Below, piece after piece: positions 21,535 to 40,267 of a stretch of 64,000 nt of DNA (the first letter of the stretch is position 1; every line of letters starts with the position of its first letter). A program made the position numbers and the translations under genes. Below the pieces are notes generated by a model. That model was not told where the DNA came from. It did no database searches and was given only the letters and a program-made list of their open reading frames with translations. This DNA is from Thermoplasmata archaeon (GTDB lineage Archaea; Thermoplasmatota; Thermoplasmata; UBA10834). The stretch covers positions 7,479 through 71,478 of the forward strand of contig JBFYNF010000045.1 of NCBI GenBank assembly GCA_041304525.1, given 5' to 3'.

Positions 21535-21557
21535 AAGGCTTTGAAGGATGTGATTCC

Positions 21558-22161: not shown

Positions 22162-22202
22162 CAACGGCCCTGATTGAATATCAACAGCCTCCAACGCATC
22201 TC

Positions 22203-22230
22203 GAGGCACTATCCACAGGGCATGTAGACC
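22203..22230 (+). repeat. conserved archaellin-upstream motif, copy 2 (GAGGCACTATCCACAGGGCATGTAGACC)
   Basis: 28-nt version shared exactly with inverted copy 3; followed by the hairpin CTCGTCC-tca-GGACGAG and a GAGCTAG block also seen after copy 1. Confidence 0.6.
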
Positions 22231-22365
22231 GTAGGCTCTCGTCCTCAGGACGAGCTAGTAGGCAGGTCCGTAGGACCTGCCCATTCTGATAGTGTCCCAC
22301 GTTGGTGACCGCTGCAATCCGAACATAGCCACGTTCCATGCCCTCCAAACACGGAGAGGACTGGG

Positions 22366-24087: not shown

Positions 24088-24129
24088 TTCTTGGAAGCCA
24101 GTCGTCCCGGAATCAACGCGGAGCGAATC

Positions 24130-24158
24130 AGGGGTGAGAATCACCCCTAGTAATTTTT
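24130..24158 (+). terminator. hairpin plus T5 terminator after the giant archaellin
   Basis: AGGGGTGA-gaa-TCACCCCT followed by AGTAATTTTTCT. Confidence 0.55.
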
Positions 24159-24217
24159 CTGAATATTTGTATAATAATGTTTATGACTTGTCCTCTCGAT
24201 AGTAAGGGCTCGAGAGA

Positions 24218-24245
24218 GGTCTACATGCCCTGTGGATAGTGCCTC
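24218..24245 (-). repeat. conserved archaellin-upstream motif, copy 3 (inverted orientation)
   Basis: Reverse complement of 24218-24245 equals GAGGCACTATCCACAGGGCATGTAGACC. Adjacent hairpin CCTCTCGA..TCGAGAGAGG. Lies about 320 nt upstream of archaellin 3, downstream of an AT-rich box TTTGTATAATAATG (24166-24179). Confidence 0.6.
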
Positions 24246-24566
24246 TCAAGCCAACCTTGGGAGGCACATCTCTCTCACTCCCCGCTGTAGGGCACGGCGG
24301 TTGCCTCGGAGGTGAGGCGTGAGGACCTGGTAAACACGATTGACCTGGTTGCCGCCAGAATCGATTGATCGCCCCAGAGCAACGACGTGCCAAGTACGGG
24401 GTACAAAACCGTGTGTTTTGGACCTACATCGAGCAGAGGAAGCTCTCGATGTCCCGCCTGTGGCGGGGGAGCCAGGATCGGCTCTGACGATCCCCGCGCC
24501 GGCAGGTTCGCCGGTCGTCCCTCAGGTACGGAACCTGGGAAAGATGCGAGATTGGAGGAAGAAAGA

Positions 24567-25181
24567 ATGCAGAAACTAGCATGGAAGAAGAGGAAGATGG
24601 AAGAGGAAGGTGAGATGGGTGTTGGTACCCTTCTGATCTTCATCGCCATGATACTCGTAGCCGCTGTGGCCGCGGGTGTACTGGTTCAGACCGCATACAA
24701 GTTGCAGCAACAGGCTGAGAGCACCGGTAACGAGGCACTGCAGGACGTCGCCACGGGCTTCAAGGTCCTGACTGTCTGGGGAACCACGGGCACTGGTGGG
24801 AACATCACTGACGTGTACCTGAAGATCGCCCTTACGGCGGGCAGCCCCGGCATCAACCTTGCAGACGCCAAGATCGAGGTCATACAGACAATCGGCGGAA
24901 CCACTGCCTCTGAAGTGACCCTTGATTATGTGGACGGCGCGCCATCGGCATCGGCGTTCAACGCAACTGTGCTGAGGGACATGGCTCCGTCGACGACTGC
25001 CGCGATGATGACCTCTGGCGACATATTCCAGGTCCACCTTGACCTCGAGACGATGGTCATGGGTCTGGATGTCCAGGAGCAGCTCTCTGTGTTGCTGATG
25101 CCGAAGCACGGTGTCCCAACACTGTGTGAGATAACTGCGCCCTCGACGCTCGAGGCAAGCAGCGTGGTTGTCCTGAAGTAG
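24567..25181 (+). CDS. arlB: archaellin (FlaB/ArlB) 3
   Basis: [18 protein letters not shown]|[26 protein letters not shown]; near-identical signal and N-domain to archaellin 1. RBS GGAGGAAGAAAG. The track ORF starts further upstream (24387) without archaellin-like sequence. Confidence 0.85.
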
Positions 25182-25284
25182 AGACACAAGCCTCTGCGAA
25201 CCCGTCAGGGCATCACCAAACCCCTCCCTTTCTGGGAGGGGGATGGTGCCCTGACTAGAGAGCACGGGGAAATGGTGTAAGGAA

Positions 25285-26442
25285 ATGGCTGGCCTGTTCC
25301 GCAAGAAACCAGAGAAAGACGGTTCCTCCGCAAGAAGGAAGCTGAAAGGCTTCGAGGAGGGATTCGAAGAGGAGGCGGAAGAGGGGGCCTACGAGGAGAC
25401 TGAGACTAGCCAGAGAGCCGACAAACTCGTCAGCGCGGAAGATGAAGACTACTTGGGAGAGGACGAGGCCAGCGGCGCAGGTCTCGCAGGCGTCAAGGAG
25501 CTAAGCGAGCTCATGGGACGCCTGGAGGAGATCGAGGACAAGATGGGCCGGATCGACTCCGCTCTCACAACGGATCGGAACGAGAATGCCAAGGTCCGGG
25601 ACCGGCTCAATCAGATGGAACAGGACATCAGGAAGCTCCTTTCCGTCTACGAGGTCGTGTCCACCAAGTTCAACCCCTTCCTAGATGTCTCCGAGAAGAC
25701 CCCCCCACCTGTCCAGCCCCAACCGGCTGTGATGCCTGAGCCCGCTCCGTTCGCTCCAATCGAGCTGGACGGGGACATACCGGAGTTCCGGCCATATCAG
25801 GAAGGGGAAGTGGAGCCGCCCACCTTCAATGGCAAAGGGCCCAAGGCCAGCCGCGACGCCGCCCCGTGGGAGCCAGGGACGTCAACCGCTACCGTTGAGA
25901 CAGTGTTCTCCGGACCCAGGAGAGAGCCCCCACCGACACTCGACAAGACCTCGAAGGACGAGAAGTATGAAAGGCAGGTGAGAGCGTCCGCGAGGAGCAA
26001 ACACAACAAGAAGCCGCTCCTTGCGTACATCCCACACGACTACCTGACGCTGGTCCTCGTGATGCGCTGGATAGAGTTCCTGTTCGAGCGCGTGACCAGG
26101 GAAAGGATGTCGCTCGTGCTAGACTACTATGTCGATGTAGGATGGATCAGCGAGGACGTGAAATCAGAGATCATGTCCTACGCGCGCGGAGAAATGCAGG
26201 ATGTGACCAAGTACATGGGCCAAGAGGAGGTAAGGGAGGACGTGTTCCGCGACCTCCCGCCGCCGACAGCGGCCCCGTACAAGAAGGTCGAGGACTGGCG
26301 TCTGTCCGCAGACGACCACCTGAAGTCCCTGCTGTTCGTGCAGAAGATAGCCGGACTAGAGGTTGACAAGGACCGCCTTAACTCCCTCGAACAGAACATC
26401 TCCAAATTCAAGGAGAGTCTGGAGGGCTTTCATGGGGTTTAG
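25285..26442 (+). CDS. FlaC/FlaD-like archaellum accessory protein (N-terminal FlaC-type coiled coil, C-terminal FlaD/E domain)
   Basis: Coiled-coil block LEEIEDKMGRIDSALTTDRNENAKVRDRLNQMEQDIRKLLSVYEVVSTKFNPF is FlaC-like. C-terminus has LVLVMRWIEFLFERV and ..LLFVQKIAGLEVDKDRL homologous to the ArlE-like ORF. Confidence 0.7.
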   Translation: MAGLFRKKPEKDGSSARRKLKGFEEGFEEEAEEGAYEETETSQRADKLVSAEDEDYLGEDEASGAGLAGVKELSELMGRLEEIEDKMGRIDSALTTDRNENAKVRDRLNQMEQDIRKLLSVYEVVSTKFNPFLDVSEKTPPPVQPQPAVMPEPAPFAPIELDGDIPEFRPYQEGEVEPPTFNGKGPKASRDAAPWEPGTSTATVETVFSGPRREPPPTLDKTSKDEKYERQVRASARSKHNKKPLLAYIPHDYLTLVLVMRWIEFLFERVTRERMSLVLDYYVDVGWISEDVKSEIMSYARGEMQDVTKYMGQEEVREDVFRDLPPPTAAPYKKVEDWRLSADDHLKSLLFVQKIAGLEVDKDRLNSLEQNISKFKESLEGFHGV

Positions 26443-27622
26443 TGTCTCGGCTACAATGGCGATATTCTTCGCCGCCTTTCTAATCCTTTTTTCTATTCTT
26501 TATTCCTCTTTGAACGACGCCTTCGACTCTGTGTCGGAGTCGTTCGATGAGAAGTACGAATACATGAACGATCGACTCGATACGCAAGTGACGATACTCG
26601 ACGTCAGTTACCAGAGGGACTCAAACACCCTAGATATCAGGGTCCAGAACACTGGCAGCAAGGTCCTGGACATATCCAAGGTCGACCTGATTCTGGAAGG
26701 GGCCATCCCCACGTCGTTCAATAAGACCATCCAGGGGACGGACACAGAGGTTTGGCTCCCGACTGAGGTCCTCACGATCACTGTCGATGATCCCGATGTG
26801 TCATTCGAGACTGACCTCGACCCGCGCGCTTCGCTCACCAATGACGCCTCCCTGTCTGCCCCCTCGAATGTCTCCGTTGGAGAGAGCGTCTACGTCCTGG
26901 ATGGACAGGACATAGATGTCTTCACGCTCGGAGGTGTCTTCGATTTCACGATTACAGACTCATCAAACATGGTCTCGCCCTCTGACCTGAAAGTGTGGGG
27001 AGATTATCTCTACGTACTGGACGAGGGCACACACATCGATCGGTTCGGACTCGACGGGGCTTGGGTGGACCGGATAGTGAACGACACGACGAACTCGTCC
27101 ATCCTGACCTCATTCAGCGTCGATTCCGAGTACATATACATCATAGACAACAGGAGCCACATCGACCGGTATGGCCTGGCCACAGGAATATTCGTGGACT
27201 CGATTGTGCCGAACGGAGGCACGATGACATCGCCGCGAGACATCTTCGTCAGCTCGCACATCTTCGTGATCGACTACAGTTCGGGATACCATGTTGACGT
27301 GTACGAGCTGGACGGCAGCGGAGGGACGGAGTTAGTCGGCACGGTAGGGCTCTCGTCGCCAACGGATATCTGTGCCAGCGCGAACGGCCTGGACGACGTG
27401 TATGTGTATGTCGTCAACGGATCGAGCGAGGTGGCCGTGTTCAACGCAACGGGGTCGCCCGTGGACATAGTCGACAGCCTGCTGAGCGACTCTGTGATCG
27501 CCGTAGACGTCACAGGCAAGATGTATGTCTCTGACAATGTGAATGGACTCGTCGTGGAGAACCTGGGTACTAACATCAAAGTGGTGGTAGAGAATGGAAT
27601 CTCATGTGTCACAGTGCAATAG
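26432..27622 (+). CDS. FlaF (ArlF)-like protein fused to a C-terminal NHL-repeat beta-propeller
   Basis: N-terminus MGFSVSATMAIFFAAFLILFSILYSS and the following beta-sandwich match FlaF. From about residue 170, five or six repeats of the type YVLDGQDIDVF / YVLDEGTHIDRFGLDG / YIIDNRSHIDRYGL / FVIDYSSGYHVDVYELDG / YVVNGSSEVAVFNATG are NHL-like. Confidence 0.65.
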   Translation: MGFSVSATMAIFFAAFLILFSILYSSLNDAFDSVSESFDEKYEYMNDRLDTQVTILDVSYQRDSNTLDIRVQNTGSKVLDISKVDLILEGAIPTSFNKTIQGTDTEVWLPTEVLTITVDDPDVSFETDLDPRASLTNDASLSAPSNVSVGESVYVLDGQDIDVFTLGGVFDFTITDSSNMVSPSDLKVWGDYLYVLDEGTHIDRFGLDGAWVDRIVNDTTNSSILTSFSVDSEYIYIIDNRSHIDRYGLATGIFVDSIVPNGGTMTSPRDIFVSSHIFVIDYSSGYHVDVYELDGSGGTELVGTVGLSSPTDICASANGLDDVYVYVVNGSSEVAVFNATGSPVDIVDSLLSDSVIAVDVTGKMYVSDNVNGLVVENLGTNIKVVVENGISCVTVQ

Positions 27623-27625
27623 GAG

Positions 27626-28072
27626 GTGGAGATGATGGGCGCAAGCGGAGCATCGACTCAGCTGATATTCTTCATATCCGCGTTGATCGTGGCAACGGCA
27701 GTAGTCGCCGTGGCCGCCAACGGGGTGTCCAAGATAACCAACGGGATAGACCAGAAGAGCGATAATGTGGAGAAGGATCTGCTGACGGACATTTCGATAA
27801 TAAACGACCCTGACGAGATCCCGAACGACCCTGTCAGGATATATGTCAAGAACGTGGGCAAGACCGTCCTGAACCAAAACTATATCACAGTAATGCTGGA
27901 TGGGTTTGCGGTCACGAACTACACGCTGACGCTGAGCGGGAGCACGTTGTCCTACTGGGACCCCGCGAGCATGCTGACGATATCAATAGACCAGAATTTG
28001 GCAGAGGGGGACCATTCGGTACAGGTGACCACCGAGAACGGCGTCTCTGACAAGCTCAGCTTCCGCATATGA
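27626..28072 (+). CDS. FlaG (ArlG)-like protein
   Basis: Hydrophobic N-terminus QLIFFISALIVATAVVAVAANG followed by a beta-sandwich domain; position between FlaF and FlaH. ATG at 27632 with AGGAGGTGG RBS is the likely true start. Confidence 0.7.
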   Translation: MEMMGASGASTQLIFFISALIVATAVVAVAANGVSKITNGIDQKSDNVEKDLLTDISIINDPDEIPNDPVRIYVKNVGKTVLNQNYITVMLDGFAVTNYTLTLSGSTLSYWDPASMLTISIDQNLAEGDHSVQVTTENGVSDKLSFRI

Positions 28073-28076
28073 CGGG

Positions 28077-28787
28077 GTGAACCCTCCAATGGGGGAGACC
28101 TACAAGCTACAGATACCCAGAGACGACCTACATGACCAGCTAGGTCAGGGCCTCCCCGCGGGAACGATAACGTTGGTCGAGGGAGCGCATGGGACCGGAA
28201 AAAGCGCCCTCGTCCAGCGGATGATCTACGGATTCCTTTCGAACCAACACTCGGTAACGTGCATATCGACGGAGCTGACCGTCAGGGACTTCATCAACCA
28301 GATGTACTCGCTCGACTACCCCATATCCTCATGGCTCCTGAACGGGAAACTGAAGTTCGTGCCTGTGTACCCACTCGTGGGCAAGGCCAGGAAGAGGAGC
28401 GACTTCCTGGGCATGCTGATGGGCTCCGAGGAACTGTACAAGAGTGACATCATGATCATAGATACCTTCTCCAGCCTCGTCAGCAACAGCCTTCATGGGG
28501 AAGACAACAGCATAGGTGTGCTGTCATTCTTCAAGAGACTCACCGGCATGGGTAAGAGCATCGTGGTGACAGTGGACCCGACTGAACTGGACCCTAAGGC
28601 GCTCGCACCGTTCGAGTCGGACAGTCACGTGTATTTGAGCATAATCGTGTCACAGGTCGGCGGGATGATATCCAGGAGCATCATGGTGAAGCGGTTCGGT
28701 GGCACCGAGTACAGGGTGTCCCCGGTCGTGGGCTTCAGGATAGAGCCTAATGTGGGCATGGTCATCGAGATCACATCAGTCGTGTGA
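28077..28787 (+). CDS. arlH: FlaH (ArlH) KaiC/RecA-like ATPase
   Basis: Walker A LVEGAHGTGKSALV and RecA-like core. Conserved operon position before FlaI. Confidence 0.8.
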   Translation: MNPPMGETYKLQIPRDDLHDQLGQGLPAGTITLVEGAHGTGKSALVQRMIYGFLSNQHSVTCISTELTVRDFINQMYSLDYPISSWLLNGKLKFVPVYPLVGKARKRSDFLGMLMGSEELYKSDIMIIDTFSSLVSNSLHGEDNSIGVLSFFKRLTGMGKSIVVTVDPTELDPKALAPFESDSHVYLSIIVSQVGGMISRSIMVKRFGGTEYRVSPVVGFRIEPNVGMVIEITSVV

Positions 28788-28797
28788 GGTCACGGTC

Positions 28798-30429
28798 ATG
28801 GCGGCGAAGTTCAGCAAGGTCCTGGAACGGAATCCCCACCTGAACGTCTATCTTCAGAGATACGCTCAGGAGACAAACCAGTCGCCGAAGTTCATGGACA
28901 CACTGGGCAGGGATCTCGGGAAGGAGGCGACCGTGGATGTCATCTACCCTGTCGGCGACCCGATATTCATACACCTGCACGGCTCCAAGGACACCGGGCA
29001 CAAGTACGATGTCGTGCAGCCAATGATGGAGGACGAGCTTGGCAAAGCGTACGAGAAGGTCGTCAATAATGTCTTCTTGAAGTCAGGGAAGGAGAAGATC
29101 CACTCGACCGATGAGGAGTTCAACGAGGTCCTGGACAAGCTCCTGAACGAAATAGTCGAGGTCACAGAGAGACGCATCCCCTCGAAGGTCGTACAGCTGT
29201 TCAAACCCAACTCCAAGATCTACGTCACCCCAGATGACTACAGCATCCTGGAGTACTACGTCAAGAGGAACATCCTCCAGAACGGCATCCTCGAACCGAT
29301 ACTCAGGGACCCGTACATAGAGGACATCCACTGCGTCGGCGTCAGGGAGGTGAACCTGTACCACAAGATCCTGGGCATGGTGGAGACGAACATCAAGTTC
29401 TCGAACGTCTCAGACCTGGACAAGTACACCAAGGGGATGAGTGAAAGGATGGGTCGTCCCGCATCGATATCGAGACCGATCATCGACGGCGCCCTCCCGG
29501 ACGGTTCCCGTATCAACATCATCTACGCTGACGACGTGAGCGTCAACGGGCCGACATTCACCATCAGGAAGTTCTCAGCGGAGCCGCTGAGTGCCGCTCA
29601 ACTCTCTGGATGGAACACTGTCTCCGCGCAGGAGGCCGCATACCTCTGGCTCTGTCTCGAGAACGGCATGAGCGTGTTCGTCTGCGGTGAGACCGCCTCA
29701 GGTAAGACGACCCTGCTCAACGCCATATTCCCGTTCATAAGGTACGACCAGAAGATATTCTCGGCTGAGGACACCCTGGAGGTGCAGCCGCCTCACGCCG
29801 TCTGGCAACAATTATCCACAAGGGAGTTCGGCCCGGAGGAGAGCAAGGTGGACACCTTCGCCCTCCTGAGAGCTGGACTCAGGTCCAGACCCAACTACAT
29901 CATCGTGGGTGAGATCAGAGGGAAGGAAGGGAACGTCGCGTTCCAGGCGATGCAGACTGGCATCCCGGTCATGGCGACATTCCACGCCGCCTCCGTCAAG
30001 AGGATGATACAGAGGTTCACCGGCGCCCCGATCAGCGTGCCCATCACGAGCATGGACAACCTCAACGTGGCGGTCTTCCAGGCGGGCGTATACAGGAACG
30101 GGAAGTTGATCAGGAGGACCCTGTCCATCGAGGAGATACTGGGCTACAGCGAGTCGATGGGCGGAGTGATGACCAGGGCAGTCTTCGTATGGAACCCGGT
30201 GAGCGACCAGCACATATTCCGAGGGATGAACAACTCGTTCATACTGGAGGAAAGGATCGCCGTCAAGAGGGGGTACAAGGACAAGAGGGACATATACAAG
30301 GAACTCGCCCTCAGGACCAGGATCATCGAGAAGATGGTCGAGACGAACATGACCTCCTACAAGACAGTCAACGACATCCTCAAGGCATTTCAGAAGGAGG
30401 GAGTGGCCGGCCTGCCGTTCACGGTCTGA
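28798..30429 (+). CDS. arlI: FlaI (ArlI) archaellum assembly/motor ATPase, copy 1
   Basis: Secretion ATPase of the type II/IV family: Walker A VCGETASGKTT and Walker B/His box. N-terminus MAAKFSKVLERNPHL. Confidence 0.9.
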   Translation: MAAKFSKVLERNPHLNVYLQRYAQETNQSPKFMDTLGRDLGKEATVDVIYPVGDPIFIHLHGSKDTGHKYDVVQPMMEDELGKAYEKVVNNVFLKSGKEKIHSTDEEFNEVLDKLLNEIVEVTERRIPSKVVQLFKPNSKIYVTPDDYSILEYYVKRNILQNGILEPILRDPYIEDIHCVGVREVNLYHKILGMVETNIKFSNVSDLDKYTKGMSERMGRPASISRPIIDGALPDGSRINIIYADDVSVNGPTFTIRKFSAEPLSAAQLSGWNTVSAQEAAYLWLCLENGMSVFVCGETASGKTTLLNAIFPFIRYDQKIFSAEDTLEVQPPHAVWQQLSTREFGPEESKVDTFALLRAGLRSRPNYIIVGEIRGKEGNVAFQAMQTGIPVMATFHAASVKRMIQRFTGAPISVPITSMDNLNVAVFQAGVYRNGKLIRRTLSIEEILGYSESMGGVMTRAVFVWNPVSDQHIFRGMNNSFILEERIAVKRGYKDKRDIYKELALRTRIIEKMVETNMTSYKTVNDILKAFQKEGVAGLPFTV

Positions 30430-30443
30430 TCCGCGTTTGCTGG

Positions 30444-30509
30444 CACTGATAGTCAGGCCTGAGAATTGGGCGCCAACCCTTATTACTTCAGGTTCTGGAT
30501 TGGCCTTTG
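30444..30509 (+). promoter_or_regulatory. conserved promoter/start module A (shared with 34185-34252): TGATAGTCAGGC..GAGAATTG.GCGCCAA.CCTTAT, about 22 nt, then start codon and GCCACCG
   Basis: About 36 of 41 nt identical to the element before the surface-protein gene. Same spacing (22-24 nt) from the TTAT(T/G)A box to a start codon (TTG 30507), consistent with a BRE/TATA and leaderless start. Confidence 0.5.
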
Positions 30510-30608
30510 AGGCCACCGAGCGCAGGCTCCACAGGGCTACCTCCGCCCAAGGGTGCGGCATTGGCTCTGCTCAGGAGCCGCTTGAGGCGCCTCAGCGGAT
30601 GGGTGAGG

Positions 30609-32258
30609 ATGCCTGCAGACGAAGCTGGCCTGAAGAAGGCCATGAGGAAGAACCCGCACCTCCTTGAATACGTCCAGGAGTTCGTCAGCAGACACAGGTC
30701 GCCTCCAGAGTTCCACCCCGTGGTCGAACGCAAGATGGGGGACGAGCAGCAGGTCAACGTGATCTACCCGATAGGCGACCCGCTCTTTGTCCATGTGTTC
30801 TCGACAGATAGCATACCCATCAGCTACAAGTCCGTGCAGCCGCCGATGACGCCGGACCTGCAGCCCAAGTACAGAAAGGTCATCCAACAGGTCTACAACA
30901 AGGCCGTCTACATGGACCCGCACGAATCTGTGGAGGAGTTCGAGAAGAATCTCCTGCAGCTGATAGACGCCTCGACAAAGATCTCCGAGAGCAGCACGGA
31001 TGGCGACGGCAAACGCATCTTCGGCGACCTTTTCACGGAGCCAAAGATATTCGTCACCCAGCACGAGCAAGACCTGATCAAATACCATGCGAAGCTGGCG
31101 ATTGTGCTAGCAGGACCCCTTGAGCCACTCCTCAGAGACCCGTACATCGAAGATATCCACTGCATCGGACACGACAACGTCTCCATCGTCCACAAGATAT
31201 TCCAGGCGATGCCGACCGATGTGAAGTTCGAGTCGATGGAGGAACTCGACAACTATGTTCGGGCCTTGAGCGAGAGGATAGGCAGGCCGGCGTCGATGGC
31301 TAGGCCGATAGTGGACGGTACGCTTCCTGACGGGTCACGTATCAACCTCATCTACGCTGACGATGTGAGCGTCAAAGGCCCCAGCTTCTCCATCAGGAAG
31401 TTCGCCGAGGAACCTATAAGCATAACCCACCTGATCGAATGGAACACCATCAGCGCCCAGGAAGCCGCCTACATATGGCTCTGCCTGGAAGAAGGCATGA
31501 GCATATTCTTCTGCGGGGAGACGGCGTCGGGCAAGACGACGACCATGGGCGCGGCCCTCCCATTCATCAAGTACGACAGCAAGGTCTACACGGCCGAGGA
31601 CACCATCGAGATGCAGGTTCCACACAAGGTGTGGCAGAGGTTGGCAACGCGGGACTTCGGCCCTGAGGAGAGCAGGGTCGACACGTTCTCACTGCTCAAG
31701 GCCGCTCTAAGATCGAGACCGAACTTCATCATAGTCGGAGAGATTAGGGGCAAGGAAGGGAGCGTTGCGTTCCAGGCCATGCAAACGGGCCACCCCGTCC
31801 TGTCCACGTTCCACGCGGCATCGACGAGGAAGCTCATACAGAGATTCACCAGCGACCCCATCAATGTGCCCATCACGTTCATAGACAACCTGAATGTCGC
31901 GTTCTTCCAGGCAGGCGTGTACAGGGAAGGTAAATTCCTGAGACGGACGATGTTCATTGATGAGATCGTCGGGTACAACGAAGCGCTAGGCGGGATCATG
32001 ACCCGGACCATCTTCCTGTGGAACGCCGCGGACGACTCTCACATGTTCAAGGGGATGAACAACTCCTACATCCTCGAGGAGAAGATTGCGGTCAAGAGGG
32101 GCTACAGTGACAAGAGGAAGATATACGGTGACCTGGCCCTCAGGACCAAGATACTCGAAGAGATGGTCTCCAGGAAGATATTCAAGTACGAGAAGGTGGC
32201 GGAGATAACCAAGGAGTTCCAGAAGAAGGGGGTGAGCGGCCTACCGTTCCCCGTGTAG
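30609..32258 (+). CDS. arlI: FlaI (ArlI)-family ATPase, copy 2 (tandem paralogue)
   Basis: About 60-65% identical to copy 1 over the ATPase core (GRPASMARPIVDGTLPDGSRINLIYADDVSV...CGETASGKTT). ATG 30609 aligns with the copy-1 N-terminus. An in-frame TTG at 30507 adds 34 Arg/Pro-rich residues and sits at the conserved promoter-module spacing, so the true start may be 30507. Confidence 0.85.
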   Translation: MPADEAGLKKAMRKNPHLLEYVQEFVSRHRSPPEFHPVVERKMGDEQQVNVIYPIGDPLFVHVFSTDSIPISYKSVQPPMTPDLQPKYRKVIQQVYNKAVYMDPHESVEEFEKNLLQLIDASTKISESSTDGDGKRIFGDLFTEPKIFVTQHEQDLIKYHAKLAIVLAGPLEPLLRDPYIEDIHCIGHDNVSIVHKIFQAMPTDVKFESMEELDNYVRALSERIGRPASMARPIVDGTLPDGSRINLIYADDVSVKGPSFSIRKFAEEPISITHLIEWNTISAQEAAYIWLCLEEGMSIFFCGETASGKTTTMGAALPFIKYDSKVYTAEDTIEMQVPHKVWQRLATRDFGPEESRVDTFSLLKAALRSRPNFIIVGEIRGKEGSVAFQAMQTGHPVLSTFHAASTRKLIQRFTSDPINVPITFIDNLNVAFFQAGVYREGKFLRRTMFIDEIVGYNEALGGIMTRTIFLWNAADDSHMFKGMNNSYILEEKIAVKRGYSDKRKIYGDLALRTKILEEMVSRKIFKYEKVAEITKEFQKKGVSGLPFPV

Positions 32259-32265
32259 GTCCTCC

Positions 32266-33927
32266 ATGGCTGCGAGCAAGATGAAGCGTCTCTACCAGTC
32301 CCTCGACATGCCCGTTGAGAAGTACTTCACGAGATACGCTCTCCCGCTCGTGATAGCGGGCATCGGCGCGACTGCCCTGCTGGTCTTCCTATTCCCCGAA
32401 CTGGCGGCCGATGGGCTGTTCAAGTATGTGTTCCTGGCAATCCCTGTCCTCTTCTCGGTCGTGGCAGTAATATACCCGATGCTACAGGGTGAACGGAAGA
32501 AGGTCCAGATAGAAAGGAACATGCACCTGTTCCTCGTCAGGATGAGCGTCCTCTCGACATCGAAGCTGCCAAGGAAGAAGATGCTCGAGATCCTTTCGAA
32601 GGTCAAGGAATATGAAGCGCTCAGCCTTGAAATCGAGAAGATCTACAAGCTCATGGAATACTGGAACATGGGTCTCTCGGACGCCGCGAGGACCGTCTCC
32701 CGCAAGACTCCCTCGCCGATGCTAGCAGATTTCCTCGACAGGCTCGCGCACTCATCCGATGCGGGCGAGGACCTCGAGGAGTTCCTCACCAAGGAGCGGG
32801 AGGTGTCCATGAGCGTCTACATCAACAAGTACGAGACGGCGCTCAAGGACCTCGACCTGCTGAACGAGATATTCGTCGCCGTGCTGATATCCCTGATGTT
32901 CATCCTCGTGTTCGTCGCGCTCCTGCCCGTGTTCGTGGACATATCCATCACCCTCATTCTTCCGGGCGTCGCGCTGCTGTTCGTCATCGTCGAGGGGATG
33001 GTGCTGTATCTGGTCAAATCGCTACTTCCATCGGACCCCATATGGCACAACATCAAGGGGCAGACCGAGATCGACAAGGTGATGAAGTCCGTCCTTCCGG
33101 CGACATACGCGGCATGCATCGGGTTCGCCGCCTTCGGGTTCCTGACGGGCTTACCCCTGATGCTCATAGTCGCGCTTGTCGTCACACCGCTCCTGTATCC
33201 AGGGTTCATGATAAGGAGGGAGGAGAAGCGGGTCAGGGCCAGGGACGAGAACTACGATTCGTTCATGAGGGCCGTGGGCAGCTACGCGGCATCTGCTGGC
33301 TCCGCGGTCACGGATGGCGTCGGCAGGCTGAGCAAGCACGACTTCGGGGAGCTCTCGGAAGGCATAGTGATCCTGTACAAGCGCCTGCTCACCCGGATAG
33401 ACCAGATACGCGCCTGGAACCTGTTCGCAGCCGAGAGCGGGAGCAACCTGATCTCCAAGTTCACGGAGATGTATGTCGTCGGTCTGTCCGTGGGCGGGAA
33501 GGTGGACAAGGTCATCGACATCATCAGCGACAACTTCGTGAAGCTGATGGGCGTCAGGCGCAAGAGGTACCAGTCATCCGACAACATGCTGGGGACATTG
33601 TATGGGATGTCCGTCGGCATAACGTTCACCTTGTTCTCCGCGCTGAGCCTGATGCAACTCCTGAACATCATGAACGAGCAGTTCGCGCTCTCCCAGACGA
33701 CGATCAATCTGCCCATCGCGCTGAAGCCATTCGACCTGGGCCTGGCTGAGGCGGTCTTCCTGCTCATCATGCTCGTGCACTCGCTCATATCCGCGAACCT
33801 CGTCTCCTTCGCCGGCGGCAGCCACAAGCATAGTTTCTACATCAACTTCGCAATCATAACATGGATCAGCACCGTGACGGCCATCGTCACACAGTTGATG
33901 CTCGACAAGGTCCTGAACCTCTCATGA
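32266..33927 (+). CDS. arlJ: FlaJ (ArlJ) polytopic membrane platform protein
   Basis: 553 aa with two TadB/C (T2SSF)-like halves and multiple TM helices. Immediately follows the FlaI genes. Confidence 0.85.
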   Translation: MAASKMKRLYQSLDMPVEKYFTRYALPLVIAGIGATALLVFLFPELAADGLFKYVFLAIPVLFSVVAVIYPMLQGERKKVQIERNMHLFLVRMSVLSTSKLPRKKMLEILSKVKEYEALSLEIEKIYKLMEYWNMGLSDAARTVSRKTPSPMLADFLDRLAHSSDAGEDLEEFLTKEREVSMSVYINKYETALKDLDLLNEIFVAVLISLMFILVFVALLPVFVDISITLILPGVALLFVIVEGMVLYLVKSLLPSDPIWHNIKGQTEIDKVMKSVLPATYAACIGFAAFGFLTGLPLMLIVALVVTPLLYPGFMIRREEKRVRARDENYDSFMRAVGSYAASAGSAVTDGVGRLSKHDFGELSEGIVILYKRLLTRIDQIRAWNLFAAESGSNLISKFTEMYVVGLSVGGKVDKVIDIISDNFVKLMGVRRKRYQSSDNMLGTLYGMSVGITFTLFSALSLMQLLNIMNEQFALSQTTINLPIALKPFDLGLAEAVFLLIMLVHSLISANLVSFAGGSHKHSFYINFAIITWISTVTAIVTQLMLDKVLNLS

Positions 33928-34184
33928 GGGAGAAAGGTGAGCGTCCGTCTGCGGTCCATGGCTGGCCTGAAGAGGTTTGGCCACCGAATCTTGCCTTTCG
34001 CAGTCGTCCTCTGAGAGAACGCGCATGGGCCAGCCTCTGGACAGGTTCTGACGAACGCTTGATTCGACTATCCTTAGCGCTTTTCATAAGCGTTTGGCAA
34101 GGAATCTCCGCACTGAGAATCGGTCGAGATTCTCTTCCCCACCCTGTGTCCGGACAACTGGTGTTGTTTCGCTGCACTTGACGC

Positions 34185-34252
34185 ACATGATAGTCAGGCG
34201 CGAGAATTGAGCGCCAAACCTTATGAGTGGATAGACCTGATTTTGACATATG
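34185..34252 (+). promoter_or_regulatory. conserved promoter/start module B (paralogue of 30444-30509)
   Basis: CACATGATAGTCAGGCGCGAGAATTGAGCGCCAAACCTTATGAG, then 24 nt, then ATGGCCACCG (start of the 1033-aa surface protein). Contains the internal GGCGC..GCGCC inverted repeat. Confidence 0.5.
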
Positions 34253-37200
34253 GCCACCGTGAGTAGGACGGCGCTCACGAGCACGATGCTCGTTGTTCTG
34301 CTCCTCCCGATGACGCTCATGGTCCTGCTCCAAGGACCGCCGGCGCCGTCCGCTCACGCATTTCCCATAGACGATTTTGGGAGCAGCATCAGACTCACTT
34401 TCGACCAAGCCATATCGACCAACGTATCCTCCAGCGTGGATGACGACGGCAATATACACGTCGTGTGGGAAGACTACAGGTCCGGGGCCGGGGACATCTA
34501 CTACATGAAGCTGGACGACGAAGGCAACAAACTCACCAACGACGCGAAGATATCCAACGACACCACCGCATCCCGGAACCCATCGGTGGCAGCTGACTCG
34601 GACGGACACATATACATCGTGTGGGAGGATGTGGACAACGGCTCGTCTGAGCTATTGTTCGCGAAGCTGTGGTACTACGAGGGCAACATCACATTCCAGG
34701 AGAATGGGCTCCAGGTATCGGACAGCGACCCCGCGAACTCGACTGAGCCGGACATCGCCGTGTGCCAGGACGGCAACCTATCCTTGGTTTGGACCGACGC
34801 TCGGCACGACGCCGGCGACGGCAACCTGGAGATCTACTATAAGCGCCTGAGGATGTCAGGGACCTCTCTCACACCCGATACGCGCGTGACTGGAGACGTT
34901 GGACGGTCTGAACACCCGAGGCTCGATACAGACTCTGATGGTATGGTCCACATCGTCTGGTACGATTTCAGGGACTCCAGTAACGGCCTGGTGATCAACC
35001 ACGGCGTGTTCTACAGGAAGGTCATAATGGACGGCACGCCCCTGACACCCGAGACGAGGATCACCTTCGCTTCACCTCAGTCGAGGCCTGACATAGCAAT
35101 AGACACTGATGGAAACGTACACGTGGTCTTCGACGACGACCGGTATGCGAGTTTCGACATATTCTACACGCTCCTCGACCCTGACGGGAACACACTCGTG
35201 GATGACAGGAACATCTCACCCAAAGACGACAACGAGTCCAGATGCCCCAGGATAGCCCTGAGCGACTCCAACGCAGTCGATGTCGTGTGGCAGGACCAGA
35301 CGTCCGGTCTATGGGCCATCCACTACTCCGCGATGAACTACAACGGTGAAATCGAGGTCTACGACCAAGGACTGACTTCAGAAACGGTCGGGAACGCCAC
35401 CATCCCTGTGGCGATGTGCGCGAATGACAACAACACCCTCGTGATGTATGTGGGCGACTATCCGAACATGGAGGTGTTCTTCTCAAGGACTCACAGGCCG
35501 GATCCGGCGGTGCTCGCGGGCGGGATTTCCATGTCATCCACCCAACCACTGATCGGGACCACTGTCTGGGTCAATGCGACCGTGTGGAACCTCGAAGGGG
35601 ATGCCCTAACGGATCTGGCTGTCCGCCTGATGGTCGATTCGGTGGCGGTCGAAGACGCCACTGTAGCCTACCTAGTAGCAGGGCACTCAACCGTCGTCAG
35701 TTTCTCACACACAGCGTCCGAAGGCGAGACCATCGTGACTGTGGCCGTCGACCCTGATCAGACCGTAAGGGAGACATTTGAGACCAACAACCAACAGTCA
35801 GCCCCTATGCTCGTCCGGACGCCCGGGGTCGTTCTGACGTCCGACGTCAGCAGCCAATCTGCTGAGCCCGACGAGACGGCCATATTCAACATCACAATCA
35901 CCAACGAAGGCAACACGGCGTTCTCATTCTGTCTGTCGAACTCCGAACCTGAGAGCGGCTGGATCATTGACCTGGGTGGCTCGCCTGAGGGCATCTACAC
36001 GGTTCCCGCAGGCTCGTCGGCCGTGGCTACTGTTGAGGTCACGGTTCCCGAGGATGAGACGCCTGGAGCGCGTGCGTTCTCCGTGCTCGCCACATGCGTC
36101 GAAAGAGACTCCGTCAACGACAGCGTCACCCTCATGGTGGATGTCGTCAGGTTCGGCGAACTGACTGTTGTATCGTCCGACGGAGGAGATGTCGAGCCGA
36201 CCATCCCTGAGCTATACACGTTCACTGTCTCAAACTCGGCCAACGCCAATGAGACCTTCGCGGTCTCGGCCTCCGACCTCCTCGGATGGGACCTCGTCGC
36301 TTCCCATGACGAGCTGGAGCTCGCACCCGGTGAGGAGGCTGAGGTGTCCGTGCTCGTGACGCCTGCTAGGTACGATCCCCCGGGCACACTGAATACGCTC
36401 ACGTTGACCCTGTCATCCATGAACTTGACCTGGAACACAGTGGAAGGGAACTTACTCATGATCGTGGGGCATCACTGGGAGGTCGACGCCAAGCTGACGC
36501 AACAGGCGTTCCTCAACATGTCTGTGCCAGATGAGAGAGAGGTCAGGTACATCCTCGATGTGACGAACCTAGGCAACTCAGATGATGTGTTCAGGCTGAG
36601 TCTATCGGGGATTGATGCGTTCTGGGCCACCCTGAACACGACCTATGTGTTCCTCGGAGCCGGGGACGAGCAGCAAGTCTACATATCCCTCACACCAGGC
36701 GTGGACGTGCTCGCAGGCGCATACCCTTTCAATGTGACCGTCGTGTCGGAATCCGACGACAATGCGACGGAGACCCTGGAGATGGGAGTGTCCGTGTTGC
36801 CGTTCTACGACATCTCAGTATCGGCTGAGTTCGCACAGGTGAGCCTACGACGAGGAGAGACCGCGTTCGTCAACCTGACGGTCCGGAACACCGGCAATTC
36901 GGCGGATGTCGTCGACCTGTACGCGTACGTGGGCGCCCTAAACACGACAACGGCTACCTTTGTGGGTGAGGTGGTGTCACTGGAAACGGGAGACCCCATC
37001 CTCATCGCTCTGGAACCCGGAGGGTCTGCCACAATCATGCTGACGATACCGGTTCCCGGAGATGTCGAGATCGGCTTGCAGGACTTGTGCATGGACTTCA
37101 GTTCCATGACCGACCCGAGCGTTATGGCATCTCAGACCGTCAGTGTGCTAGTAGAGGATGACCCGTCTTGGTTCACTCTGTGGGTCATACTGATCATAGT

Positions 37201-37351
37201 CGGCGCAGCAGTGGCCGTCGTGGTCCTCGTCGTGTTCCTGATACTCAGGAAGAGGAGGGCAGAGGAGGTCGCAAGGGAGGAGGAGCGGCGGAAGATGCAG
37301 GCAAGGAAGAGGCCTCCGGGGCCCCCGAGGGTCAAACCGAAAGCGCCGTGA
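34250..37351 (+). CDS. large cell-surface protein: signal peptide, six-bladed beta-propeller-like repeats, CARDB-like and several Ig-like domains, C-terminal TM anchor with basic tail
   Basis: Six repeats of the type D.DG..H(I/V)VW.D.R.G..DIYY. Segment ..VTVAVDPDQTVRETFETNNQQS matches the CARDB E.nE.NN end. Many N-x-S/T sequons. End is WVILIIVGAAVAVVVLVVFLILRKRR. Confidence 0.7.
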   Translation: MATVSRTALTSTMLVVLLLPMTLMVLLQGPPAPSAHAFPIDDFGSSIRLTFDQAISTNVSSSVDDDGNIHVVWEDYRSGAGDIYYMKLDDEGNKLTNDAKISNDTTASRNPSVAADSDGHIYIVWEDVDNGSSELLFAKLWYYEGNITFQENGLQVSDSDPANSTEPDIAVCQDGNLSLVWTDARHDAGDGNLEIYYKRLRMSGTSLTPDTRVTGDVGRSEHPRLDTDSDGMVHIVWYDFRDSSNGLVINHGVFYRKVIMDGTPLTPETRITFASPQSRPDIAIDTDGNVHVVFDDDRYASFDIFYTLLDPDGNTLVDDRNISPKDDNESRCPRIALSDSNAVDVVWQDQTSGLWAIHYSAMNYNGEIEVYDQGLTSETVGNATIPVAMCANDNNTLVMYVGDYPNMEVFFSRTHRPDPAVLAGGISMSSTQPLIGTTVWVNATVWNLEGDALTDLAVRLMVDSVAVEDATVAYLVAGHSTVVSFSHTASEGETIVTVAVDPDQTVRETFETNNQQSAPMLVRTPGVVLTSDVSSQSAEPDETAIFNITITNEGNTAFSFCLSNSEPESGWIIDLGGSPEGIYTVPAGSSAVATVEVTVPEDETPGARAFSVLATCVERDSVNDSVTLMVDVVRFGELTVVSSDGGDVEPTIPELYTFTVSNSANANETFAVSASDLLGWDLVASHDELELAPGEEAEVSVLVTPARYDPPGTLNTLTLTLSSMNLTWNTVEGNLLMIVGHHWEVDAKLTQQAFLNMSVPDEREVRYILDVTNLGNSDDVFRLSLSGIDAFWATLNTTYVFLGAGDEQQVYISLTPGVDVLAGAYPFNVTVVSESDDNATETLEMGVSVLPFYDISVSAEFAQVSLRRGETAFVNLTVRNTGNSADVVDLYAYVGALNTTTATFVGEVVSLETGDPILIALEPGGSATIMLTIPVPGDVEIGLQDLCMDFSSMTDPSVMASQTVSVLVEDDPSWFTLWVILIIVGAAVAVVVLVVFLILRKRRAEEVAREEERRKMQARKRPPGPPRVKPKAP

Positions 37352-37438
37352 TGGGGTGCCAGCAGGTTCCCGGACATGAATTGTGGACCCGGAAAGCTTT
37401 AAGTACAGTACCCGATTATCGGGAATCAGGTGATTTAA

Positions 37439-37654
37439 TTGATGAAACCCCTGGCAGTTCTGAACAAGGCGATCAACCAGCAGGTTATCGTGGAGCTAAA
37501 GGGGAAGAGGGGATACCGCGGAACCCTCGACGGATACGACCCTCACATGAACCTCGTACTGAGGAATGCTGAGGAGATACTCGACACGAAGGTCACCCGA
37601 AAGATGGAGGCCATCATCGTCCGCGGAGACAACGTCATATACATATCCCCGTGA
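37439..37654 (+). CDS. archaeal Sm-like protein (SmAP1/LSm)
   Basis: 71 aa with Sm1/Sm2 motifs ([26 protein letters not shown] ... [13 protein letters not shown]). Confidence 0.85.
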
Positions 37655-37665
37655 GGTAGGACAGG

Positions 37666-37833
37666 ATGACCAAGGGTACCCCGTCGATGGGCAAGAGAAG
37701 CTCCAAGAAGACGCACATCGTCTGCAGACGATGCGGCAAGAGAGCATACCATGTGCGCCACAAGACCTGTGCTTCGTGCGGCTTCGGTGCGACTGCCAAG
37801 ATCAGGACATACAACTGGGCCAAGCAGCACTGA
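37666..37833 (+). CDS. rpl37e: 50S ribosomal protein L37e
   Basis: 55 aa, [40 protein letters not shown] (C4 zinc ribbon). Classic Sm-L37e gene pair. RBS GGTAGGA. Confidence 0.85.
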
Positions 37834-39281
37834 TGAAACGCTTTCCTTTGAACTGGGGGTTGAGGTCAACGGAGCCTGATCACCCGAGGGAAGAGTGTGG
37901 GGTTTTCGCAACTGCGTCAGTGACGAACGTATCGATAGACATATTCTATGCGCTGAGGGTCCTCCAACACAGAGGTCAGGAGTCCGCAGGCATCGCGGTC
38001 TACAACCACGAGGGGATCAAGTGCATCAAGGGCATGGGGCTCGCCCATCAGGCGCTGAAACCAGATGAGGTCCAGTCCCTCAAGGGGGACTTGGGCATAG
38101 GCCATGTCCGGTATTCGACCGTCGGGTCTTCCACGATAAGCAACGCGCAGCCTTTCGTGGTGTCGACCAACTACGGCGACATCGCCCTCGCGCACAACGG
38201 CGAGATAGTCAACGCCGACAAGATCATGGACGAGCTCAAGAAGAAGGGCTGGGCGTTCATAACATCATCTGATTCGGAGATCATCGTAAGGCTCATGGCG
38301 AACGAGATATCCACCACGGGCGACCCTATCAGGGCCATCAAGAATGTCATGTCCATGATACAGGGAGCGTACTCGCTCACGGTCATGGTGGACAACCGCG
38401 TGTTCGCGGTCCGGGATCCGCTCGGCATACGCCCATTGTGCGTCGGCAGGACGAAGACGGGCTATGCTGCAGCATCTGAGAGCGTCGTGTTCGACACGCT
38501 CGGTGGGGAGTTCATCAGGGATGTCGAGCCCGGGGAGATAGTCGAGTTGCTCCAGGGCGAGATCAAGTCCCACAAGACCGGCCTCGCGAGGGGCAGGGCG
38601 CACTGCATGTTTGAGTGGGTCTACATCGCGAGGGCCGACTCGATCATCGAGGAGAAGCTCGTGTACGAGGTCAGGAGGCGCATAGGCGAGCGACTCGCGA
38701 AGGAGCAGCCGGTGCAGGCCGACGTCGTGGTGCCTATCCCTGACTCGGGAAGGTCTCACGCGATGGGGTACGCAGAGGGGTCGGGTATCAGGTACTCCGA
38801 GGGTCTCATGAAGAACCGGTATGTCGAGCGCACGTTCATCATGCCCGAGCAGTCGGACAGGACCACGAGCGTCATGCTCAAGCTCAACCCGCTCAAGAGC
38901 GTGATAAAGGACAAGAGGGTCGTCCTCGTGGACGACTCCATAGTCCGGGGCACGACAATGAGGAAGATCGTGCAGCTCGTAAGGAATGCGGGAGCCAAAG
39001 AGGTCCATGTGAGAGTGGGCTCTCCCCCGATTATCGCCCCATGCTACTTCGGCATCGACATGAAGACCAGGGACCAGTTCGCGGCTACGGGCAGGACGGT
39101 CGAGGAGATCGGGAAGATGCTCACGGCTGACAGCCTCGGATACATATCGGTCGAGGGACTCGTCGACGCCATCGGCCTGCCCGCTGGCGACCTGTGCCTC
39201 GCGTGTCTGACTGAGGAGTATCCCTTGGCCGTACCTGGGGAGAAGGTCCGGTACCAGAAGAAGCTGGACTCGTTCGCTTGA
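37833..39281 (+). CDS. purF: amidophosphoribosyltransferase (PurF) with an N-terminal propeptide of about 20 aa
   Basis: Catalytic CGVFA (Ntn Cys) preceded by [21 protein letters not shown]. Glutamine amidotransferase and PRTase blocks (VVLVDDSIVRGTT). ATG overlaps the L37e stop (TGATG). C-terminal Cys cluster CYFGIDM..C..C. Confidence 0.85.
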   Translation: MKRFPLNWGLRSTEPDHPREECGVFATASVTNVSIDIFYALRVLQHRGQESAGIAVYNHEGIKCIKGMGLAHQALKPDEVQSLKGDLGIGHVRYSTVGSSTISNAQPFVVSTNYGDIALAHNGEIVNADKIMDELKKKGWAFITSSDSEIIVRLMANEISTTGDPIRAIKNVMSMIQGAYSLTVMVDNRVFAVRDPLGIRPLCVGRTKTGYAAASESVVFDTLGGEFIRDVEPGEIVELLQGEIKSHKTGLARGRAHCMFEWVYIARADSIIEEKLVYEVRRRIGERLAKEQPVQADVVVPIPDSGRSHAMGYAEGSGIRYSEGLMKNRYVERTFIMPEQSDRTTSVMLKLNPLKSVIKDKRVVLVDDSIVRGTTMRKIVQLVRNAGAKEVHVRVGSPPIIAPCYFGIDMKTRDQFAATGRTVEEIGKMLTADSLGYISVEGLVDAIGLPAGDLCLACLTEEYPLAVPGEKVRYQKKLDSFA

Positions 39282-39485: not shown

Positions 39486-39827
39486 ATGAGGAAGGAGTTC
39501 GAGAGCGAGTTGGCGAGACAGGTATCAGGAAAGAAGAGACTCAGCAGGGCCTGGGTCATGTTGGCACTCTGTGCTGCCATTTTGGTCAGCGGGGCAGCGG
39601 CCGTGACGGCCGTAGCCGCAGGCAATGGAGATCAGCTCCAAACCCAGGACCAGCTCAAGGACGGTTCGTGCGACGACTGCGACGGCGACGGCATCTGCGA
39701 TTACGACCTAGACGGTGACGGTGTCTGTGACAATGATTGCACGTGCGACTGTGACGGCGACGGGATCTGCGACAACGACTCCGATGGAGACGGGGTCTGC
39801 GACTACCAAGAGGATTGCGTCGCCTGA
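39486..39827 (+). CDS. small membrane-anchored Asp/Cys-rich repeat protein (four DGDG(I/V)CD repeats; dockerin/TSP3-like Ca-binding-loop pattern)
   Basis: ATG 39486 with GTGAGGA RBS. Signal-anchor AWVMLALCAAILVSGAAAVTAVAA, then SCDDCDGDGICDYDLDGDGVCDNDCTCDCDGDGICDNDSDGDGVCDYQEDC. The repeat is also visible at the DNA level. Confidence 0.5.
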   Translation: MRKEFESELARQVSGKKRLSRAWVMLALCAAILVSGAAAVTAVAAGNGDQLQTQDQLKDGSCDDCDGDGICDYDLDGDGVCDNDCTCDCDGDGICDNDSDGDGVCDYQEDCVA

Positions 39828-39886
39828 AGCGCCAGTGCTGAGTCGATTAGTCCTGGCAACGGATAGTGGTTGAAACCCATTCAGAA

Positions 39887-40080: not shown

Positions 40081-40267
40081 ACACTCATTTTCCGGACATC
40101 ACTCGCACAGTCAGGGATACCATCCTCCGAGCATCTCGTCCAGGGCGACCGCCTTGTCATCCACATGCTCCTTCGTCACGACGAGAGGCGTTAGGACGGA
40201 CGAGATTGGCTGACGAGGCATCCGCTCACATGTCCGTCGGTGCAGCTCAGGGGCATCGGTGGCCGAA

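Follow-up and report, generated by a model that had tools for sequence, protein, structure and literature searches.

Paired promoter-like modules and a candidate small RNA in the archaellum cluster of uncultured Thermoplasmata

Regulation of the archaellum in Euryarchaeota is understood mainly through EarA at the archaellin promoter, and we know of no work on how archaella are regulated in the sediment Thermoplasmata considered here. In this study, we examined a sequence module that occurs twice in the archaellum cluster of one such archaeon, within a stretch of 64,000 nucleotides (the window) carried by the 255-kb freshwater-sediment metagenome contig Ga0105107_10000001 (JGI 3300009087). The first copy (copy A) lies between two paralogs of the motor ATPase gene, flaI-1 and flaI-2, and the second (copy B) lies behind flaJ, in front of a gene for a surface protein of 1033 amino acids. 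The host is uncultured and represented by metagenomes alone. As judged from sequence, the two copies are likely paralogous archaeal promoters of the activator-dependent type that have long been kept in one clade of uncultured Thermoplasmata, and a candidate small RNA gene is located between flaJ and copy B.

Among the closest described systems is the EarA-dependent fla (arl) promoter of Methanococcus maripaludis and other Euryarchaeota, in which a weak TFB recognition element (BRE) and TATA box are combined with a factor site just upstream of the BRE (PMC5512572, PMC10665913). The module shares this arrangement, being a putative promoter of an archaellum cluster with a weak BRE/TATA and a conserved site directly upstream of the BRE, and it resembles activator-dependent archaeal promoters more generally (EarA-type, ara-box, and Ptr2). 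The EarA site, however, is a TACATA repeat of 6 bp in front of the first archaellin gene, whereas the element of the module reads TGATAGTCAGG-N3-GAGAATTG, and the module stands before flaI-2 and the surface-protein gene and is absent from the archaellin promoters of the window. The TACATA consensus was not found in the module. A second point of comparison is the archaellum cluster of Sulfolobus acidocaldarius, which is divided into two transcription units with a flaB and a flaX-J promoter (PMC4307647). Copy A would likewise be a second promoter inside the cluster that drives motor and assembly genes apart from archaellin, but it lies between two flaI paralogs in another lineage, has a second copy at an adjacent gene outside the archaellum set, and includes a conserved 5' box. 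Copy B has the look of an ordinary leaderless archaeal promoter: it combines AA at -34/-33 with a TATA-like box centred near -27, would start at a purine and lacks a Shine-Dalgarno sequence; it differs from such promoters in an additional 22-bp upstream element and in invariant positions +3 to +10 that are common to the second promoter. Finally, archaea have trans-acting small RNAs by which translation start regions are masked, as exemplified by sRNA162 of Methanosarcina mazei (PMC3510493; reviewed in PMC4152357). The candidate RNA has in common with sRNA162 an intergenic location, a (predicted) structure and a single-stranded stretch that is complementary to the site at which translation of a putative target starts. 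While sRNA162 masks an internal ribosome-binding site, the candidate RNA would target the first 10 nt of both transcripts, and with them the AUG of a leaderless mRNA.

Occurrence, conservation and layout of the module

The 39-nt pattern TGATAGTCAGGC-NN-GAGAATTG-N-GCGCCAA-N-CCTTAT-N-A occurs at exactly two sites in the window, 30447-30485 and 34188-34226, both on the plus strand, and not once in 100 dinucleotide-preserving shuffles. This upholds the repeat that had been pointed out in an earlier examination of the letters alone (the sequence-only reading). The two copies are direct repeats 3741 bp apart that bracket flaI-2 and flaJ, and copy A starts 18 nt past the stop codon of flaI-1. In copy A, the upstream element consists of TGATAGTCAGG (30447-30457) and GAGAATTG (30461-30468) with three nucleotides in between, spanning -62 to -41 from the predicted +1; it is followed by the BRE/TATA-like sequence AA-CC-CTTATTA (30475-30485), with AA at -34/-33 and the C of CTTA at -30, the predicted +1 at G30509, the box GGCCACCG (30511-30518), and a small hairpin GAGC-N4-GCTC (30518-30529). 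In copy B, also on the plus strand, the element occupies 34188-34198 (TGATAGTCAGG) and 34202-34209 (GAGAATTG), the BRE/TATA-like sequence is AA-AC-CTTATGA (34216-34226), and the predicted +1 coincides with the ATG of the surface-protein gene (34250-34259 up to the end of the box GGCCACCG, which lies at 34252-34259). Relative to this ATG, the two blocks are at -62 to -52 and -48 to -41, AA is at -34/-33, CTTAT is at -30 to -26, and a semi-conserved T is found near -12. The box thus resumes the similarity after a non-conserved spacer, just as the sequence-only reading had it. Its description of the box as a start codon followed by GCCACCG fits copy B; copy A reads TTG-AG-GCCACCG, where TTG 30507 is in another register than ATG 34250 and the triplet equivalent to ATG is GAG. 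The extra similarity it had noticed upstream of the module is weakly present and shows no conservation in relatives.

Further copies were sought in several ways. When the two halves of the module were searched separately with up to 3 mismatches, no further convincing copy was found in the 64 kb, and a profile made from 18 copies recovered the A and B sites alone in 214 kb of the window and related loci (E<=10). JGI metagenome contigs were also scanned for exact matches to TGATAGTCAGG-N3-GAGAATTG, which yielded 11 stretches, each of which continues with GAGGCCACCGAGC (type A) or ATGGCCACCGTG (type B), and no third context was present among them. A wider regulon, as had been envisaged, was therefore not recovered from the metagenome contigs, the related loci or the profile search.

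A protein-based scan of one genome per GTDB species identified six close species with FlaI-2 proteins 98-74% identical and an identical gene order, and both modules are present at orthologous positions in all six. The nearest relatives of the window are metagenome-assembled genomes (MAGs) labelled uncultured Thermoplasmata or Methanobacteriota. As a measure of neutral change, fourfold-degenerate sites of flaI-2 show a mean pairwise identity of 39% among the six species, which means that they are saturated. On the same scale, the identity is 97% for the upstream block TGATAGTCAGG, 100% for GAGAATTG, 97-100% for the box, 82-85% for the AA-N2-CTTA region (BRE/TATA), 46-52% for the spacer, and 39-76% for the N3 and N6 positions. 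AA and CTTA are unchanged in 18 module sequences, in which GGCC(A)CCG is the sole invariant run 3' of the TATA box; the box itself is unchanged except for GGCCGCCG at copy A of one relative (L007). Both copies are under strong purifying selection in about eight lineages. When A and B are compared inside one genome, the upstream blocks are 97-100% identical and the spacer 31%, and the base immediately 5' of GAGAATTG is T in all A copies and C in all B copies. High identity of the blocks together with a divergent spacer and fixed A/B differences indicates old shared motifs under selection rather than a recent duplicate or gene conversion. A recent tandem duplication was also rejected as the source of the A/B likeness because of the spacer, the fixed differences, and the 56% identity of FlaI-1 and FlaI-2. 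In the 14 type-B sequences, ATGGCCACCGTG is invariant including its synonymous positions while the next codons vary, indicating a constraint on the nucleic acid and not on the protein. The proposed GGCGC...GCGCC operator, in contrast, falls away: the N3 and N6 positions vary freely, the repeat is missing in many lineages, and even in the window it is perfect in copy B only, copy A reading GGCCT...GGCGCC.

In archaeal promoters, the centre of the TATA-like box is about 26-27 nt before the start, and a purine-rich BRE with A at -34/-33 lies just upstream of the box. The module has this geometry, with an invariant AA-N2-CTTA in the 18 sequences whose C lies 30 nt before the ATG in copy B and before the equivalent G in copy A, where the 30 nt from C30479 to G30509 are free of indels in 13 sequences. 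The same distance of 30 nt from the C of CTTA to the predicted +1 is found at copy A, copy B and the putative small-RNA promoter alike. Purifying selection in about eight lineages and this fixed spacing support the earlier view that the sequence is functional regulatory DNA with a BRE/TATA-to-start geometry. The ATG of copy B does not vary, serves as the called start of the gene, and lies 30-31 nt from the C of CTTAT; neither GGAGG nor GGTGA occurs within 20 nt upstream of it in any lineage, and a Shine-Dalgarno sequence is present at many other genes of the window. Because an ATG that lacks a Shine-Dalgarno sequence at a fixed distance from CTTAT fits a leaderless mRNA, copy B is predicted to produce a transcript starting with AUGGCCACCG, in which the AUG of the membrane-anchored surface protein would be the 5' end. 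Leaderless mRNAs had been proposed for both sites, and the proposal fits copy B; at copy A, the TTG is not conserved and in-frame stops are found.

The start of FlaI-2 was examined on this basis. The sequence-only reading had FlaI-2 begin at TTG 30507, a codon that occurs only in the window's own species. All other lineages (11 of the 13 sequences) have an in-frame stop between the box and the conserved ATG, which follows 100-109 nt past the box with a G-rich, Shine-Dalgarno-like run before it in 12 of 13. The alignment of FlaI-1 with FlaI-2 begins at residue 3/6 of the ATG-started protein, and the predicted +1 (30509) would split the TTG. The conserved ATG, the in-frame stops in relatives and the aligned N-termini of the paralogs therefore point to translation from ATG 30609 behind a leader of about 100 nt (30509-30608, plus strand), which is predicted to be non-coding. 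It had also been remarked that ATG 30609 has no spacer to a Shine-Dalgarno sequence; GAGG does abut the ATG, but GGTGA, 2 nt before it, is in an acceptable register. The leader has no significant structure (fold z-scores of -1.85 to +0.6), and a structured leader or riboswitch was dismissed for lack of a significant or shared fold past the first ~22 nt, which hold GGCCACC and a small GAGC-N4-GCUC hairpin. It should be noted that one relative (L008, positions 7998-8010) has no ATG, GTG or TTG at the conserved flaI-2 start; the CTG aligned there could be an unusual start codon or point to a later start or a sequencing error. Since flaJ follows only 7 nt behind flaI-2, it is presumed to be on the same mRNA and is probably co-transcribed from module A. 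Copy A would thus be a promoter internal to the archaellum cluster that gives rise to a flaI-2/flaJ mRNA.

The layout is that of an activator-type promoter, with the conserved blocks at -62 to -41 (97-100% identity versus 39% at neutral sites) directly upstream of a non-consensus BRE/TATA. As a general rule, the site of an activator lies upstream of a weak BRE, and repressors occupy the start site or positions behind it (PMC5512572). By this rule, the 22-bp element TGATAGTCAGG-N3-GAGAATTG would be an activator site, followed by the weak BRE/TATA AA-N2-CTTAT, a fixed 30 nt to the start point, and the invariant GGCCACCG that would lie at +3 to +10 of the transcript. Of the claim that flaI-2 has its own promoter and is co-regulated with the surface-protein gene, shared control of the two genes stands as plausible.

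A candidate RNA gene between flaJ and copy B

The intergenic region between flaJ and the surface-protein gene is 322 nt long with module B at its end. Alignment of the whole region across 11 sequences revealed further conserved blocks, namely TTGGCCACCGAAT..TGCCTTTC at 33975-33999 and ATAAGCGTTTG..CAGGAAT at 34086-34106. When read on the minus strand, the latter is CAAACGCTTAT, a BRE/TATA that resembles those of the modules. This promoter-like sequence (ATTCCTTGCCAAACGCTTAT, 34086-34106, minus strand) would drive a candidate structured small RNA of 124 nt (33937-34060, minus strand), whose +1 was set at 34060, 30 nt from the C of CTTAT (34090). The RNA is predicted to have a terminal stem formed by its 5' and 3' ends, an internal hairpin, and a conserved, mostly open core GCGAAAGGCAAGAUUCGGUGGCCAAA. 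The predicted 5' end falls within nucleotides 1-3 of the long terminal stem in all nine full-length sequences, and a run of six to eight U (U6-U8) follows the terminal stem in five lineages and, more weakly, in three. The candidate RNA thus appears to have promoter and terminator features of its own in the intergenic region.

A covariance model built from two sub-lineages matches each related locus once and has no match in Thermoplasmata loci that are more distant. In the helices, 96.9% of cells are paired, compared with 38-55% in slid controls; 11 of the 16 pairs are changed on both sides, a level reached by none of 500 shuffles. The helices contain 18 G.U versus 1 A.C cells, indicating helices that function on the minus rather than the plus strand, and in 5 of 6 comparisons the fold of the minus strand is the more stable one. 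The covariance-model alignment is needed for this result, as plain MAFFT with RNAalifold gave no structure. We consider an unannotated 124-nt RNA gene at 33937-34060 well supported by these sequence features.

Known RNA families do not account for it. Positions 20000-38000 gave no match in Rfam 15 at E<=1 save one chance-level match elsewhere, and a scan for tRNA or tmRNA found nothing. A coding reading of the region was rejected since the frames of the window and L004 differ across the core and the indels are not multiples of three, as judged by eye. A scan for sigma-70 promoters and intrinsic terminators found no terminators, a method that is uninformative for an archaeon. The upstream region of the small-RNA promoter was also considered as a relative of the module and set aside, because the match in the window (12 of 19 positions in register) is too weak and the profile search misses it.

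One more conserved sequence, TGAGAATC-N4-GAGATTCTC (34115-34135, without assigned strand), lies between the two divergent promoters in the 11 sequences, with a variable centre. It can be taken either for an inverted repeat (GAGAATC/GATTCTC) or for direct repeats of GAGAWTC with a spacing of 11 nt, and it is a probable protein-binding site. In the direct-repeat reading, the spacing equals one helical turn. GAGAAT recurs in GAGAATTG of the module, and both may be sites of one common factor.

The shared box and its possible readings

Across 14 sequences, no invariant run of the small RNA is longer than TCGGTGGCC, which is the reverse complement of GGCCACCGA and holds the anti-box UCGGUGGCC (33978-33986, minus strand). 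Through it, the small RNA could form 9-10 base pairs with the 5' ends of both predicted transcripts, and this complementarity is invariant in all lineages. The paired stretch would be GGCCACCGAG in the type A transcript and UGGCCACCG in the type B transcript, where it overlaps the AUG, and the sole box variant, GGCCGCCG at copy A of L007, is an A-to-G change that would retain a G.U pair. Most likely, the shared box at +3 to +10 would be read at the RNA level by the core UCGGUGGCC of the divergent small RNA, whose pairing would cover the AUG of the leaderless mRNA, adding joint post-transcriptional control to joint transcriptional control. Pairing of the small RNA with the box is a reasonable, if tentative, inference from the conserved complementarity. 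The complete circuit, a clade-specific one in which two promoters would tag both mRNA 5' ends with GGCCACCG and a small RNA would read the tag and cover the leaderless AUG, is put forward tentatively, and we are inclined to doubt it in this full form.

Other occurrences of the box were inspected as well. Those at 9354, 14176, 45244 and 50167 seem to lie within coding sequence and have no promoter context. A further one at 40257-40264 (minus strand), just past the stop codon of an S51 peptidase gene (40268-41251, minus strand), has flanks TTCGGCCACCGAT that resemble the complement of the small-RNA core and likewise lacks a promoter context; it may represent either chance or a third target located in a 3' untranslated region. 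The start of the open reading frame (ORF) 18218-19450, which offers an 11-mer complementary to the RNA core, was dropped as a second target, as it is not conserved in L092 and is probably due to chance.

Taken as a whole, the reading with paralogous promoters, a flaI-2 leader of about 100 nt, a leaderless copy B and a box read by a small RNA has, on the sequences compared, a probability of roughly 0.6 in our estimation. Several observations weigh against it. As a TATA box, CTTAT is weak, and no known factor site matches the upstream element, which has no TACATA motif of EarA. Box and anti-box are invariant throughout, so they do not covary. The predicted duplex energies of -23.7 and -23.2 kcal/mol are just in the top 1% of random 30-nt windows, the window being GC-rich, and for this reason duplex energy was dropped as a proof of targeting. 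The anti-box is no more than moderately accessible, with an unpaired probability of 0.36-0.62 in the predicted folds. The covariance-model alignment is itself a fit to the structure and misaligns or truncates the terminal stem of three lineages. Finally, the dyad-symmetric sequence AATTYGG-CCA-CCGAATT around the third box, which lies within the small-RNA gene, would form a hairpin with a U.G pair on the plus strand and would also suit a DNA-binding dimer.

This last point leads to the main rival of RNA pairing, in which the promoters stand as described but GGCCACCG is a DNA element, either an operator at which a repressor covers the start site or an element of the initiator or initially-transcribed-sequence type; the small RNA would serve an unrelated function, and the copy inside its gene would be a further site of that same protein. 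The orientation of all three boxes, which is alike on the plus strand, the dyad-symmetric flanks of the third one, the frequent binding of repressors at or after the start site (PMC5512572), the unexceptional duplex energy and the absent box/anti-box covariation all agree with it. The third box, however, lies at +75 to +82 of the small RNA (+74 to +82 for the 9-nt UCGGUGGCC) and not at a start site, so the positional rule of A and B fails for a DNA element; it is also the longest invariant run of an RNA with covarying helices, which a role at the RNA level explains directly, and there is little dyad symmetry around boxes A and B. We therefore hold a DNA element to be unlikely, though a serious competitor to pairing.

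Other explanations do without internal initiation or without a regulatory role of copy A. The conserved blocks might be signals for processing or protein binding in a polycistronic RNA that reads through from the archaellin promoters, and copy A does lie in a tightly packed operon, 18 nt past the flaI-1 stop codon with no clear terminator before it. Yet AA-N2-CTTA at a fixed 30 nt from an invariant ATG without a Shine-Dalgarno sequence is the look of an archaeal leaderless promoter, a convergent RNA gene with oligo-T runs separates copy B from flaJ, and the equal BRE/TATA spacing at the small RNA is on the opposite strand, beyond the reach of operon read-through; this makes read-through improbable. 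Even less credible is copy A as a decaying relic of a segmental duplication, or the pair as the ends of a mobile or recombining element around flaI-2 and flaJ. Direct repeats 3741 bp apart that bracket these two genes, and similarity reaching about 20-30 nt into the coding start of the surface-protein gene, speak for such an origin. Copy A, however, is conserved as well as copy B although neutral sites are saturated, the fixed A/B differences mean that the copies have not been homogenised, and the bracketed segment is present in every relative; marks of a mobile or repeat element were not found, the module consisting of two direct copies in constant contexts without an inverted partner or a transposase. 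The version of the sequence-only reading, with both mRNAs leaderless, FlaI-2 translated from TTG 30507 with a 34-residue Arg/Pro-rich extension, and a GGCGC...GCGCC operator, has hardly any probability left. As this version has it, no stop codon interrupts the frame between TTG 30507 and ATG 30609 in the window, and GAGG abuts the ATG; the version is opposed by the absence of the TTG and the in-frame stops in all other lineages, the conserved ATG and its upstream G-rich run, GGTGA in an acceptable Shine-Dalgarno register 2 nt before the ATG, paralog N-termini that align without the extension, and the unconserved inverted-repeat positions.

The archaellum cluster, neighbouring elements and biological meaning

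The cluster begins with three archaellin genes (20920, 22366 and 24567) and a short FlaD/E-like ORF (21558-22019), and flaC/D/E, flaF, flaG and flaH lie between the archaellin genes and flaI-1. The last gene before module A is flaI-1 (arlI paralog 1; 28798-30429, plus strand), which is called from start 28798 in the source contig and scores 725 bits with the NCBIfam FlaI equivalog model (cut-off 550). It is followed on the same strand by flaI-2 (arlI paralog 2; 30609-32258, ATG start, 709 bits), whose exact 549-residue product is called on four contigs, by flaJ (arlJ; 32266-33927, NCBIfam ArlJ/FlaJ, 554 bits), and by the surface-protein gene (34250-37351), which follows flaJ in every relative. 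The surface protein has a signal peptide, BNR, CARDB and Ig-like domains and a C-terminal membrane anchor, as read from Pfam and its N- and C-terminal translations. FlaI-1 and FlaI-2, both above the equivalog cut-off, are collinear from the N-terminus and about as divergent as FlaI proteins of different orders. Tandem flaI pairs are also found in L021, L022, L034, L036, L038, L040 and L042 (Methanoperedens and loci labelled just Methanobacteriota) and in L071, L081 and L082 (Thermoplasmata/Methanobacteriota MAGs). The pairs of other lineages have 12-50 nt between the genes and lack the module, so two FlaI paralogs seemingly arose more than once.

Just upstream of the first archaellin gene, an Lrp/AsnC-family regulator (17644-18204, plus strand) and a small winged helix-turn-helix protein (20179-20547, plus strand) are encoded, and their products are candidate archaellum regulators; the region 19550-19930 (minus strand) is listed alongside. 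The small winged-helix protein is 86% identical in L092, which also has an adjacent divergent paralog with 33% identity. A perfect 25-28-nt repeat, GAGGCACTATCCACAGGGCATGTAGACC, occurs at 20737-20761 (+), 22203-22230 (+) and 24216-24245 (-); each copy lies behind a TATA-like box in the long upstream region of one of the three archaellin genes, and the third copy is inverted. As a consequence of this inversion, plus-strand RNA of the third promoter would carry an exact complement to the leaders of the first and second archaellin genes. In another reading, the second archaellin gene is bracketed by protein or recombination sites in the form of 28-bp inverted repeats 1987 bp apart. The inverted copy is unchanged in six relatives, apart from one substitution in L008, and the plus/minus pair is present at equal spacing also in L092. 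GAGGCACTATCCACAGGGCATGTAGACC includes TACATG, which is near the EarA motif TACATA. Farther downstream, tandem 30-nt repeats at 39674-39833 (+) encode Asp/Gly/Cys-rich DGDGxCD units at the end of a small ORF (39486-39827) and weakly match bacterial TSP3 calcium-binding repeats.

A conserved internal promoter for FlaI-2 and FlaJ that is shared with the adjacent surface protein suggests that this protein works with the archaellum, for example as a surface scaffold. A further suggestion is that FlaI-1 and FlaI-2 are expressed under different conditions. If the link to the small RNA is false, the locus would be an ordinary pair of co-regulated promoters. Each of the two parts, the promoter and the small RNA, would by itself be of a known type, and their combination would be unusual if confirmed. 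If the link is true, the second archaellum motor ATPase, FlaJ and the surface protein would be switched together after transcription, by a small RNA that acts on the 5' terminus of a leaderless archaeal mRNA and brings the archaellum motor genes under RNA-level control. With three short invariant elements within 4 kb, the locus would then be a compact, testable case of 5'-end control of a leaderless mRNA.

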